From Escherichia coli (GTDB lineage Bacteria > Pseudomonadota > Gammaproteobacteria > Enterobacterales > Enterobacteriaceae), in the NCBI RefSeq assembly GCF_001677475.2, contig NZ_CP015229.1: DNA of 64,000 bases; one strand, 5' to 3'. The notes under the pieces are model-generated. The model was not told the DNA's origin and searched no databases. It saw only the letters and a program-made list of their open reading frames with translations. This document shows positions 12,379 through 46,353 of the stretch, in pieces. Position 1 is the stretch's first letter; every line of letters starts with the position of its first letter. Position numbers and translations under genes: made by a program.

Positions 12379-12786
12379 TCAGTCATCTGTGCGCATTACT
12401 CTAACTGGCACTCGAACGTCGGCGATGGGGTTGCCGGTGGATCAGGCTGTTCCTGTGGCGTAAACGTTTTTATGTTAGTACCAACAGATTTACCACATTT
12501 ATCATCTTAACAGTTTGAGTGAAAATGCAGGCTGCGCCGCAAAGGGAGGAGACTGAGTGGCGTGTTCAGTCTAAAAGAGAGTTGATGCCAGCATACAGGG
12601 GCGAAGCTGGTCAACAAGTCAACATTAAGATAATGGAATATTCGGAGAGAAACGTCAGGCAGTTGGCCTCAAATGAACAGGAAGAATATATCCCCAGGAA
12701 AATTAATGTTGGTGTTATAAACACACCAACATTAATCCGATCTGATTATTAATCAGACAAATATCGTTAATCCGTCGAATTTTGAA

Positions 12787-12927
12787 TCAACGTTTTTTCT
12801 TACGACCCTGAACGGCCTTAAAACGTGGATTAGATTTACAAATCACATATAGCCGTCCTTTTCGCTTCACAATCTGACAGTCTGGATGGCGTTCTTTTGC
12901 GGTACGCAGAGAGTTAAGGACTTTCAT
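12787..12927 (-). CDS. rpmJ2: Ribosomal protein L36 paralog (zinc-independent)
   Basis: Hand translation [46 protein letters not shown] (46 aa); ATG overlaps the rpmE2 stop (ATGA). Confidence 0.85.
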
Positions 12928-13193
12928 CACGCCCCCTTTTTCGTGCTAACAAAACGACCAAAACGTTGGGTGAATCGTTCAACATTTCCTTCTGATGCCA
13001 CTGTTCTCAGCTTCCCTGTATAGAACGGGTGCGATTTAGAAGAGACATCAATTGTCACGTACGGATACGTTACGCCATCCAGCTCAATCTCCCGGTCTGT
13101 TTTGATAGTCGAGCCGATTTTAAAGTACTCATCAACACTGGTGTCGTGGAACACCACAGTACGATACTCAGGATGGATATTGGGTTTCATCAT
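12927..13193 (-). CDS. rpmE2: Ribosomal protein L31 paralog (zinc-independent)
   Basis: ORF track 88 aa [31 protein letters not shown]...; true start may be the second ATG (13190). Confidence 0.85.
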
Positions 13194-13201
13194 TTTTACC
13201 T

Positions 13202-13219
13202 GTTATGTTATAACATAAC
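13202..13219 (-). promoter_or_regulatory. Zur box (perfect 18-bp palindrome GTTATGTTATAACATAAC) immediately upstream of rpmE2-rpmJ2
   Basis: Palindrome read directly; lies 9 nt upstream of the rpmE2 start and its AGGT ribosome-binding site; zinc-repressed L31/L36 paralog operons are known Zur targets. Confidence 0.75.
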
Positions 13220-13552
13220 CGTAAAGATACATGCTCATCCGGATCATTTCAACACCCAATCCCTGTGACCCTTTGTGGATGTGGAATTTCCGCAACGGGG
13301 AACTCTGGCATTGTTAGCAGCCATTGGTGACGCTCCCATAAACGCCTGGATGAGTGATTGATGATGGTTTTGCTGAGAGTATGGATTTTTCGAGAATGGA
13401 GGTTATCTCTACTTTACTGGCCGATGATTTATCGCAGTATGATTGATTACCTGACAGCGTGTATTCCTCTCCCACGGATATAATAATTACTTACAAAAAG
13501 GGAGAGGATGCATATTTTAAATATCACTGAAGTGAACAGTTTATTGCCGTTA

Positions 13553-13654
13553 TTAATAGAAATGGAGAAATAAATAGGCGTATTCTACAATTGCGACAAA
13601 AACAACGATATTAATCAGTTTATGACTGATTTGTTGTACTTTATTCTCTTTCAT
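13553..13654 (-). CDS. ykgR: Small membrane protein YkgR (33 aa)
   Basis: Hand translation MKENKVQQISHKLINIVVFVAIVEYAYLFLHFY; matches recalled YkgR. Confidence 0.6.
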   Translation of the reverse strand: MKENKVQQISHKLINIVVFVAIVEYAYLFLHFY

Positions 13655-14135
13655 TGGTACTTCCTCGCTTTAAAAAAGAGTGCACTTCGTAAGTGCCCTT
13701 ATATAAATAACGAGTTTGGTCAACCAATTTTTTGACATGTATCACAAATTTGAATAGATGTATTACATCAACTATCTTTTATTGCACCAACGTCATTGAT
13801 ATATGTCGCCTGAAGTCAGTTCCGGGAATGAGTCTGATCTCAAGATTGGCCCAGTCCTGGCGTTGATTGGCGCTGAGGAGCATATCGCATCTCATCATAA
13901 TGTCGTATCTCCTGGGGTGTTATACAAGATATCGTTGTTGGTGACCTGGGAGAGGAATTGAGTTCTATTAAACCGTCAACTATGCCGGATACATACTGGA
14001 TTACACTGCAGGCACGCCTTATGAGAGAACGTGCCGCAGTGACGGGTTAATTATCTGAAAGAATTTGTGAGGCTGTATCGGTTACTCATTGATTTGATAG
14101 TTTTACTCTCGGGAGAGTAATAGATATTTAATCCA

Positions 14136-14379
14136 TTAACGGAAACCAGTGAGTTCCTTTCGATGTCTGAATTTCCTTGGCGTGACATAGGTATATCCTG
14201 TAATTACTAAACCAATATTTTGTGAGCGACGTTTATAATATTCGAGTTCTTGCTCAGAGATGGTTCCATCAGGATTAGCTGACCAGGTCGTCATAGGAGC
14301 CATAACGATACGATTACATGGCTTTGTTTTTTTCTGTCAGCATAAAAGGAGGAAACAGTGATAAGTGTTTATTTGTCAT
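14136..14379 (-). pseudogene. Remnant of an OYE-family NADH:flavin oxidoreductase N-terminus (frameshifted, 3'-truncated)
   Basis: Two short ORFs in frames differing by 1 nt: MTNKHLSLFPPFMLTEKNKAM* then (C)NRIVMAPMTTWSANPDGTISEQELEYYKRRSQNIGLVITGYTYVTP..., resembling the NRIxMAPM...YY..RA..GLIISE N-terminal region of Old Yellow Enzyme-type reductases; similarity ends after about 65 residues. Confidence 0.45.
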
Positions 14380-14672
14380 GACAATACCTCAAATGTTTAT
14401 CTGATTTTGATGCGTATATTTTAACTGGTTAGTTGTTACCAGCTTTGGAACCAAGATTTTTGGCTTTGTTTTTATTTATAATTACTGTTAGTGCTTTTAT
14501 TGAATTTATGGTGGAGAAAAGAGTAAAAAAAGAAAGTTAATGATGTGTGTCAGAATATCGGTAAGAAGAATGACGCAATCGTGAGGATACGTTTATTCAT
14601 AATAAATCTCCTGAAAGTTTAGAATTATTTTCTATACAGCCAGATTATCATTGTTACTAATAATGTGGTTAA

Positions 14673-16616
<1,944 letters not shown>

Positions 16617-36176: not shown

Positions 36177-37841
36177 ATGTCAGACCTTTCACACAGCAGG
36201 GAAAAGGACAAAATCAATCCGGTGGTGTTTTACACTTCCGCCGGACTGATTTTGTTGTTTTCCCTGACAACGATCCTGTTTCGCGACTTCTCGGCCCTGT
36301 GGATTGGACGCACGCTGGACTGGGTCTCTAAAACCTTCGGTTGGTACTATCTGCTGGCGGCAACGCTCTATATTGTCTTTGTGGTCTGTATCGCTTGTTC
36401 GCGTTTTGGTTCGGTGAAGCTCGGGGCAGAACAATCAAAACCGGAATTCAGTCTGCTGAGTTGGGCGGCGATGCTGTTTGCTGCCGGGATCGGTATCGAC
36501 CTGATGTTCTTCTCCGTAGCCGAACCGGTAACGCAGTATATGCAGCCGCCGGAAGGCGCGGGTCAGACGATTGAGGCCGCGCGTCAGGCGATGGTCTGGA
36601 CGCTGTTTCACTACGGCTTAACCGGCTGGTCGATGTATGCGCTGATGGGCATGGCGCTCGGATACTTTAGCTATCGTTATAATTTGCCGCTCACCATCCG
36701 CTCAGCGCTGTACCCGATCTTCGGTAAACGGATTAACGGGCCGATAGGTCACTCAGTGGATATTGCAGCGGTGATCGGCACTATCTTCGGTATTGCCACT
36801 ACGCTCGGTATCGGTGTGGTGCAGCTTAACTATGGCTTGAGCGTACTGTTTGATATTCCTGATTCAATGACGGCGAAAGCGGCACTGATCGCCTTGTCGG
36901 TGATCATCGCAACGATCTCTGTCACCTCCGGTGTCGATAAGGGCATTCGTGTGTTATCGGAACTCAACGTTGCGCTGGCGCTGGGGCTGATCCTGTTCGT
37001 GCTGTTTATGGGCGACACCTCGTTCCTGCTTAATGCGCTGGTGCTGAACGTTGGCGACTATGTGAATCGCTTTATGGGAATGACGCTCAACAGTTTTGCC
37101 TTCGACCGTCCGGTTGAGTGGATGAATAACTGGACGCTCTTCTTCTGGGCATGGTGGGTGGCATGGTCGCCGTTTGTCGGCCTGTTCCTGGCGCGTATCT
37201 CGCGTGGGCGTACCATTCGCCAGTTCGTGCTGGGCACGTTGATTATTCCGTTTACCTTCACGCTGTTATGGCTCTCGGTGTTCGGCAATAGCGCGCTGTA
37301 TGAAATCATCCACGGCGGCGCGGCATTTGCCGAGGAAGCGATGGTCCATCCGGAGCGCGGCTTCTACAGCCTGCTGGCGCAGTATCCGGCGTTTACCTTT
37401 AGCGCCTCCGTCGCCACCATTACTGGCCTGCTGTTTTATGTGACCTCGGCGGACTCCGGGGCGCTGGTGCTGGGGAATTTCACCTCGCAGCTTAAAGATA
37501 TCAACAGCGACGCCCCCGGCTGGCTGCGCGTCTTCTGGTCGGTGGCGATTGGTCTGCTGACGCTTGGCATGCTGATGACCAACGGGATATCCGCGCTGCA
37601 AAACACCACGGTAATCATGGGGCTGCCGTTCAGCTTTGTGATTTTCTTCGTGATGGCGGGGTTGTATAAATCTCTGAAGGTAGAAGATTACCGCCGTGAA
37701 AGTGCCAACCGTGATACCGCGCCGCGACCGTTGGGGCTTCAGGATCGCCTGAGCTGGAAAAAACGTCTCTCGCGCCTGATGAATTATCCGGGCACGCGTT
37801 ACACTAAACAGCTACCGTGTTTAGTCAAGAAAATTATGTGA
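36177..37841 (+). pseudogene. betT: betT 5' fragment: codons 1-545 of the BCCT choline transporter, then 9 IS-encoded codons and a stop
   Basis: ORF track 554 aa ends ...LMNYPGTRYTKQ/LPCLVKKIM*; the remaining BetT C-terminus (MMETVCYPAMEEV...) is found 1.38 kb downstream in the same frame register. Confidence 0.85.
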
Positions 37842-37995
37842 TGTTTGAACATTCCATCTTCAGGAGAAATTTTCTCTGAGTTTTTATAAAAGAGCAGATG
37901 CTCAGTTAGATACCATGAAAGAAGGTAAAAGATACAAACATGTTGCTTCAGCATTGCTCCGGTGTTATTGCTTACCATGTTGTTTTATAATGATT

Positions 37996-45420: not shown

Positions 45421-46353
45421 TTAATTCTCCCGATGCAGTAAATCCTGATAGATCCCCGTTAATATGCCATTTGGCGAAAATTGTTTTTTAATCCACTGCG
45501 TCACCTGACCGGTGGCAGAGTGCTGGGTCGCCAGTAACATGCGTGAATCCTGGCGCGGATTATGGATTTGTCGGGTAACCAGCAGGGATTGCGCCATCGC
45601 CTCACGGACCATGTAATCCGGCAAAAAACCAATTCCTTCGCCTAAAATCTGGCACTGACATTTGGTGTTGAAATCTGGCACCAGAATCGACTCCTGCCCA
45701 TGCAGCAACCAGCCCACTTTTTTATTAATCGTATGCGCGGTGTCCTCCACCATGATATTAGGGTAGAGACGCAGCTGGCTTTCGGCGATCGGCTCCGGCA
45801 CAAAGGCTAATGGGTGATCCGGGGCGATAGCAAAAGCCCAGCGAATTGCGCCAATCTCCGTGTAATCAATGCCGCCGCCGTCCAGCAGTGTGTCGGGCGC
45901 GCCGATAGCAATATTCGCCTGATTATTAATAATCGCATCCCAGACGCCGTTATACACTTCGGTCGTCACGGTAATCTGGCAGGTTGGAAACTGCTTTTTC
46001 AGTACCTGTAATAAGCGTGCGGTGTGTTTGGGCGTATAAAGCAGTTGGTTAATACAAATGCGCACCCGTGCTTCTATACCCTGCGAAATAGTATCGATGC
46101 TGCGTTTGATGGCGTGAAAATCATTCAGCAGGTCGGTAGCTTTGCGGAAAAAATAACGCCCGGACTCCGTTAACTCAATGCTTCGGGTACTGCGAGTGAA
46201 CAGCACCACATCCAGCCCCGTCTCCATTCGCTTGATGGTGTAGCTAATGGCGGAAGTGGTTAAACCCAACTCTTCTGCGGCTTTACTGAAACTGCCAAAA
46301 CGCGCAGCGGTAGTAAATGCCAACAGATTCTCTTCGGTAAAAATTGAGTTCAT
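45421..46353 (-). CDS. yahB: LysR-family regulator YahB
   Basis: ORF track 310 aa; N-terminal HTH LLAFTTAARFGSFSKAAEELGLTTSAISYTIKRMETGL. Confidence 0.8.
   Translation of the reverse strand: MNSIFTEENLLAFTTAARFGSFSKAAEELGLTTSAISYTIKRMETGLDVVLFTRSTRSIELTESGRYFFRKATDLLNDFHAIKRSIDTISQGIEARVRICINQLLYTPKHTARLLQVLKKQFPTCQITVTTEVYNGVWDAIINNQANIAIGAPDTLLDGGGIDYTEIGAIRWAFAIAPDHPLAFVPEPIAESQLRLYPNIMVEDTAHTINKKVGWLLHGQESILVPDFNTKCQCQILGEGIGFLPDYMVREAMAQSLLVTRQIHNPRQDSRMLLATQHSATGQVTQWIKKQFSPNGILTGIYQDLLHREN

Follow-up and report, generated by a model that had tools for sequence, protein, structure and literature searches.

The Zur operator of the ykgMO operon in Escherichia coli was reportedly predicted by Panina and colleagues in 2003. 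In K-12, Zur protects about 30 bp of this operator (the L31p operator) from DNase I (Gilston et al., 2014; PMC4219657). Two Zur dimers bind it cooperatively with an apparent Kd of 0.025e-18 M2, which makes it the tightest of the four E. coli Zur operators, and ykgM mRNA rises 560-fold when zur is deleted (PMC4219657). Chelation of zinc by calprotectin induces ykgM about 2,500-fold and ykgO about 1,000-fold in E. coli Nissle (PMC10410751), and the ykgMO promoter is used in engineered calprotectin biosensors (PMC10410751, PMC12279244). The Zur box of the same operon in Yersinia pestis (ykgM-rpmJ2) also lies within tens of nucleotides of the start codon (PMC2706843). It is an imperfect box, GATGTTACATTATAACATA, at −34 to −16 from the ATG, and primer extension and footprinting place the Zur site of Y. 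pestis ykgM over the −10 element (PMC2706843).

We followed up an 18-bp palindrome upstream of ykgM in a 64-kb stretch of E. coli DNA, referred to below as the window. The palindrome is almost certainly the Zur operator of the ykgM-ykgO operon. As such it is an already characterised operator and a known, textbook feature.

A perfect palindrome upstream of ykgM

The palindrome, the element that follows it and the two genes are located as follows.

13202-13219, no strand assigned: very probable Zur operator, half-sites GTTATGTTA and TAACATAAC, a perfect 18-bp palindrome (sequence, uniqueness, matrix rank, K-12 identity, PMC4219657)
13198-13201, minus strand: Shine-Dalgarno-like AGGT directly after the palindrome (read from the sequence; AGG is invariant in the Escherichia alignment)
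12927-13190, minus strand: ykgM (rpmE2), type-B L31, 87 aa, no cysteine (NF002462, 123.8 bits, cut-off 86)
12787-12927, minus strand: ykgO (rpmJ2), type-B L36, 46 aa (NF002021, 91 bits, cut-off 70)

The sequence GTTATGTTATAACATAAC equals its own reverse complement, as a sequence-only reading had claimed, and no other perfect 18-bp palindrome occurs in the 64-kb window. Its arms of 9 nt are below the minimum length of the inverted-repeat search; the palindrome was verified by a pattern search and a script. With up to three mismatches allowed, the pattern search found no second copy in the window. Read on the minus strand, the sequence runs from the palindrome straight into AGGTAAAA-ATG-ATG-AAA. 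The Shine-Dalgarno-like AGGT comes immediately after the last palindromic base, and so the palindrome does abut the ribosome-binding site of rpmE2, as had also been proposed.

GTTAT occupies positions 1-5 and 6-10 of the palindrome and ATAAC occupies positions 9-13 and 14-18 (determined by script). The 18-mer is thus composed of two identical, overlapping GTTAT-nnn-ATAAC sites offset by 5 bp.

The palindrome could in principle be a chance AT-rich feature without function. It lies in an AT-rich intergenic region, and chance alone can generate short palindromes, e.g., a 14-bp palindrome at 45921, which lies inside a LysR-type coding sequence and which we treat as a chance occurrence. Against this, none of 100 dinucleotide-preserving shuffles contained a match to GTTATGTTATAACATAAC, even at three mismatches. 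Conservation and recurrence, described below, speak against chance as well.

Agreement with Zur motifs

A structure-based skeleton, RNNNYRNNRYNNYRNNNY, consists of two overlapping RNNNYxxxRNNNY dimer sites. The palindrome agrees with it at 8/8 constrained positions (G....T G..A / T..C A...C). The R/Y skeleton alone is uninformative: the window contains 219 matches to it, and 274 would be expected. Positions 13201-13220 agree with the published IUPAC pattern for two Zur dimers, TGWNAYRWTATAWYRTNWCA, at 19/20 positions and are the only match in the window with at most one mismatch. The remaining window matches to TGWNAYRWTATAWYRTNWCA all have three mismatches and are at chance level (5 found, 2.3 expected).

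We also built a leave-one-out weight matrix from the K-12 znuA/znuC, zinT and pliG operators, with the ykgM site excluded. With this matrix of three sites only, the ykgM site ranks first among about 64,000 window positions at 24.4 bits. The training sites score 25.5-27.8 bits, the next match in the window 15.5 bits and the best of 20 shuffled windows 19.1 bits. The palindrome therefore matches a Zur position weight matrix, and the comparison with the znuA and zinT Zur boxes that the sequence-only reading had called for gives similar scores (25.5-27.8 vs 24.4 bits) within a common 20-bp frame. The second-best matrix match in the window (TGTGATGTTTGAACATTCCA, 37837-37856, 15.5 bits) overlaps the stop of a 554-aa ORF and lies between convergent ORFs. 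We considered it as a further Zur site; its score falls within the range of the shuffles, and it is probably a chance match.

The boxes of Fur-family regulators are all AT-rich inverted repeats and cross-recognition within the family has been discussed (PMC4219657), which raises the question of whether the site belongs to another Fur-family member or another regulator of AT-rich palindromes, e.g., Fur, rather than to Zur. Even when aligned to the site as well as possible, the Fur consensus GATAATGATAATCATTATC mismatches at 10/19 positions, whereas the site scores like genuine Zur operators. Among the matches listed in the cross-species search below, the neighbours of the 18-mer are zinc genes, not iron genes. 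The published derepression upon zur deletion (PMC4219657) also argues for Zur, and we give an operator for another regulator next to no credence.

Conservation within Escherichia and comparison with other Zur sites

The window does not come from K-12, and the best E. coli match to it is about 98.9% identical over 901 bp. The palindrome, the Shine-Dalgarno element, both ATGs and the −35/−10 hexamers of ykgMO in K-12 MG1655 are the same as here, base for base, and the gene order (ecpR-ykgL-ykgO-ykgM-ykgR) is shared. Four single-base differences from K-12 fall in the 170 nt upstream of ykgM and none of these is in the operator; the nearest is a T to C change 2 nt upstream of the palindrome. The palindrome is also exact in E. 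albertii and in a divergent Escherichia genome. This exact conservation in K-12, E. albertii and the divergent genome, while the flanks diverge, is a second argument against chance. The palindrome is not invariant in E. coli, as strain AF57 carries a C to T change at its last base (GTTATGTTATAACATAAT; L127:573-590). The AF57 variant breaks the perfect palindrome and keeps the pyrimidine of the RNNNY motif.

The E. coli znuA/znuC, zinT and pliG operators have the 20-bp frame TGWNAYRWTA/TAWYRTNWCA and the half-site TAACAT..CA in common with ykgMO. These operators are imperfect palindromes, whereas the ykgMO operator is perfect over 18 bp. The distances to the start codon also differ, with 11 nt here and a published 34 nt for pliG.

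Zur-box consensus sequences for the gamma group (GAAATGTTATANTATAACATTTC) and the Rhodobacter group (GATATGTTATAACATATC) are quoted in PMC2706843. The proteobacterial consensus sequences and the ykgMO site have the core ATGTTATAACAT in common. The 23-bp gamma consensus, as quoted there, is centred on one dimer site, whereas the dyad between the two dimers forms the centre of the 18-bp palindrome. The two differ in the frame of alignment, and no real difference is involved.

Recurrence of the 18-mer in other genomes

The exact 18-mer occurs at at least 120 loci in a collection with one genome per species. Among the matches listed, 119/120 have proteobacterial labels (alpha, beta, gamma or unclassified Proteobacteria), and the 18-mer is present two to four times in several genomes. 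At equal base frequencies, about 4 chance copies would be expected in 298 Gb, with more in AT-rich genomes. Chance copies would not cluster in one phylum. The genomes with the 18-mer include Bradyrhizobium, which is GC-rich. The excess of at least 120 loci over about 4 expected, almost all of them in Proteobacteria among the matches listed, is a third argument against chance. Together the shuffle, conservation and recurrence tests effectively refute this explanation, whose probability we consider negligible.

To describe the neighbourhood, we looked for ORF starts in the 150 nt to either side of the palindrome and kept the longest ORF per side, which gave 201 ORFs for a Pfam scan. Among the matches listed, these neighbours comprise CobW/COG0523 (28 of 201), Fur family (14), ZnuA, TonB-dependent receptors and Peripla_BP_2 (8 each), ABC ATPases (7), FolE2 and L31 (6 each), ZinT and DUF1826 (3 each), and L36 and ZrgA (2 each). 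We counted COG0523/CobW, Fur-family, ZnuA, ZnuC, TonB-dependent receptor, FolE2, L31, L36, ZinT and periplasmic-binding-protein families as zinc-homeostasis families. The start of such a gene lies within 150 nt of the palindrome at 88/120 loci among the matches listed, at a median of 27 nt; the loci were picked for carrying the palindrome, so the counts describe its associations and not how frequently it is found at L31B genes. The Zur-box reading of the palindrome is therefore supported by identity with the K-12 operator, the top matrix rank, the 19/20 IUPAC match and the zinc-gene neighbours of the 18-mer.

At the Pelagibacter and Pelagibacteraceae loci (L010, L038, L053-L055, L065, L089, L091 and L107), the 18-mer is found 0-3 nt before the predicted start of an ORF of about 120 aa. 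At least some of these SAR11-type ORFs match the Fur family. If true, and with start codons that are predicted, this layout would represent an autoregulated zur almost without a leader.

Predicted promoter and transcript leader

A consensus scan predicts a sigma-70-like promoter directly upstream of the palindrome.

13247-13252, minus strand: predicted −35 hexamer TTGAAA of the ykgMO promoter (consensus scan)
13224-13229, minus strand: predicted −10 hexamer TATCTT after a 17-nt spacer, ending 4 nt upstream of the palindrome (consensus scan)

The −10 hexamer agrees with the consensus at 4/6 positions, and the promoter scan as a whole does no better than on shuffled sequence (2 found, 2.9 expected). 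Both hexamers persist in E. albertii (TTGTAA/TATTCT) and in the divergent Escherichia genome (TTGATA/TATCTT), where the spacer and the more distal upstream sequence have diverged. With the −10 hexamer ending 4 nt before the palindrome, the predicted transcription start is at about 13217, inside the operator, which would then extend from about −3 to +16 relative to that start. A limited literature search found no experimentally mapped transcription start for E. coli ykgM.

The sequence-only reading held that a bound repressor would occlude the promoter and transcription start region. Occlusion is plausible, given a conserved −35/−10 pair that ends 4 nt upstream of the operator, and the start site is a predicted one. 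Occlusion of the promoter by Zur is well supported by analogy; in this strain it is a predicted mechanism.

A start inside or near the palindrome means that part of it would be transcribed. The palindrome might then act, instead of or besides being an operator, as an RNA hairpin in the ykgMO 5′ leader that affects translation, mRNA stability or autoregulation by L31/L31B. A 7-bp hairpin ending just before the Shine-Dalgarno element can be drawn, and L31B is reported to repress rpmE through a 5′-UTR hairpin (PMC9825181). The fold is weak, at −7 kcal/mol (z = −0.86), and 36/200 shuffles fold as well. Only about 5 bp of it would be left if transcription starts at the predicted position. An Rfam search of 12400-13800 with E-values up to 1 returned no match. 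In the cross-species comparison, the 18-mer adjoins unrelated gene families in either orientation, 0-143 nt from their starts, and is also found between divergent genes. This variety of neighbours and distances fits a DNA site that is read by a protein and not a leader RNA, and we consider the hairpin explanation very unlikely.

A second role of the operator at the RNA level, as a 5′-terminal stem-loop ending at the Shine-Dalgarno element, is slightly less improbable and still doubtful. With a transcription start no further downstream than the first palindromic bases, the ykgMO mRNA would open with this stem-loop, which could then stabilise it or bind L31/L31B for feedback, as reported for the rpmE leader.

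The ykgM and ykgO genes and their junction

The zinc-binding cysteine motif by which L31/L36 paralogues are distinguished is said to have been defined by Makarova and colleagues in 2001. NF002462 and NF002021 are the NCBIfam models for type B L31 and type B L36, and the two proteins match them above the cut-offs. YkgM contains no cysteine, and YkgO contains two cysteines and no CxxC pair. Judged by family membership and loss of the cysteine motif, both of which are found here, the operon encodes the zinc-independent (type B, 'C-minus') L31/L36 paralogues. The identification of the pair as zinc-free L31/L36 paralogues by the sequence-only reading thus agrees with the two family matches and with the lack of cysteine in YkgM. 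The same two ORFs are annotated as ykgM/ykgO in 5,081/5,426 complete E. coli genomes in RefSeq, and the RefSeq neighbours of the pair in E. coli are ecpR, ykgL and ykgR. A change from Ala to Glu in YkgM is the only amino-acid difference of the operon from K-12. The Glu codon is at 12994-12996 on the minus strand, and both K-12 and ECCRA-119 have Ala (NVERF here vs NVARF).

In RefSeq, ykgM starts at the second of the two ATGs (13190), and 11 nt separate this codon from the palindrome. The alternative in-frame ATG at 13193 would give 88 codons, with 8 bases between the ATG and the palindrome. E. albertii and the divergent Escherichia genome have the second ATG only, and their proteins begin with MKQ(N/H)IHPEY. 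A distance of 9 nt from the palindrome to the start, as had been given, holds if it is counted to the upstream ATG at 13193 and fails for the annotated start at 13190.

The junction of ykgM and ykgO reads GCG TGA TGA AAG. The ykgM stop (TGA, 12929-12927) and the annotated ykgO start (ATG, 12927-12925) have a single base in common (UGAUG), and the ATGA overlap claimed from the sequence is absent. The only alternative overlap of 4 nt is a GUGA with GTG at 12930-12928, which would extend ykgO to 47 codons (12787-12930). A true ATGA overlap is found at this junction in E. albertii. The stop and start forms vary within Escherichia: GTGATG here and in K-12, ATGA in E. albertii and ATGATG in the divergent Escherichia genome. 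In the present sequence, ykgM ends with two in-frame stops (TGA TGA, 12924-12932) and the ykgO ATG straddles both.

A Shine-Dalgarno-like AAGGGGG is located within the 3′ end of ykgM (12938-12932). The junction is tight in every L31B-L36B pair that we examined (ATGA, ATGATG, TAATG, and gaps of 1 and 3 nt), and an AAGG(A/G)G-like element is usually found within the L31B 3′ end in these pairs. Translational coupling of ykgM and ykgO, the broader claim behind the overlap, therefore remains a fair inference from the tight junction and this element.

Flanking sequences

Downstream of ykgO, on the minus strand, 12698-12768 can form two stable hairpins, and the stronger second hairpin lies inside the 3′ end of ykgL. 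The gene ykgL (12519-12752, plus strand) is convergent with ykgMO.

12698-12736, minus strand: candidate intrinsic terminator of ykgMO (inverted repeat and fold; a proposed function)

The candidate has a perfect 14-bp stem (12736-12723 with 12715-12702) and a 7-nt loop followed by UUUU. The 126-nt region that contains it folds at −37.9 kcal/mol (z = −5.3). The terminator scan did not report this hairpin because its T-run is short. From its structure, the hairpin at 12702-12736 is a plausible terminator of ykgMO. In a biosensor study, ykgL, ykgM and ykgO were the three genes most induced by calprotectin (PMC12279244). The reported ykgL signal may reflect antisense transcripts reading through from ykgMO and not true induction of the gene. 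The ykgL gene is annotated as frameshifted in 3/3 of the divergent E. coli strains that we fetched.

On the other side of the operon, a 33-codon ORF on the minus strand (13553-13654, MKENKVQQISHKLINIVVFVAIVEYAYLFLHFY) corresponds to the annotated small membrane protein YkgR. No Rfam match was found in the 330-bp spacer between the ykgR ORF and the Zur operator. Further along, 13700-14700 contains only fragmentary ORFs of an NADH-dependent flavin oxidoreductase (e.g., 14051-14303), and in an alignment with an ETEC chromosome the first 25 kb of the window correspond to 28.4 kb, split into 4 pieces and with 97.7% identity. The ORF fragments and the shorter aligned length point to deletions or pseudogenes in the window relative to typical E. 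coli. The divergence of the window exceeds that of most of the 5,426 E. coli genomes, and its lineage may be Shigella-like or outlying.

Proposed mechanism and significance

When zinc is sufficient, two Zn-loaded Zur dimers, binding cooperatively, would occupy opposite faces of the operator DNA. One GTTAT-nnn-ATAAC site would be read by each dimer, the two sites overlapping with the 5-bp offset described above. In a perfect 18-bp palindrome all four monomers would see the same pentamer. This would fit the rank of ykgMO as the tightest operator, a rationale at the level of the sequence. The protection of about 30 bp would reach the predicted −10 hexamer, the predicted transcription start and the DNA encoding the Shine-Dalgarno element, and with these covered by Zur, RNA polymerase would be excluded. 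As zinc falls, Zur would leave the DNA and ykgMO would be transcribed. The cysteine-free L31B and the L36B paralogue would then replace the zinc-binding L31 and L36 in ribosomes, with ykgO presumably translated in tight linkage with ykgM through the UGAUG overlap and the Shine-Dalgarno-like element in the 3′ end of ykgM. The zur gene of this strain is not within the window. A zinc-starvation switch, as had been expected from the sequence, accords with the published 560-fold repression at the K-12 operator (PMC4219657) and with induction by calprotectin (PMC10410751).

These results leave the known picture unchanged. They confirm the annotation and correct two small misreadings. The site is the switch that lets Escherichia swap its zinc-containing L31/L36 for zinc-free paralogues during zinc starvation, which can be imposed by the host protein calprotectin. 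The same 18-mer serves as a zinc operator across many Proteobacteria.
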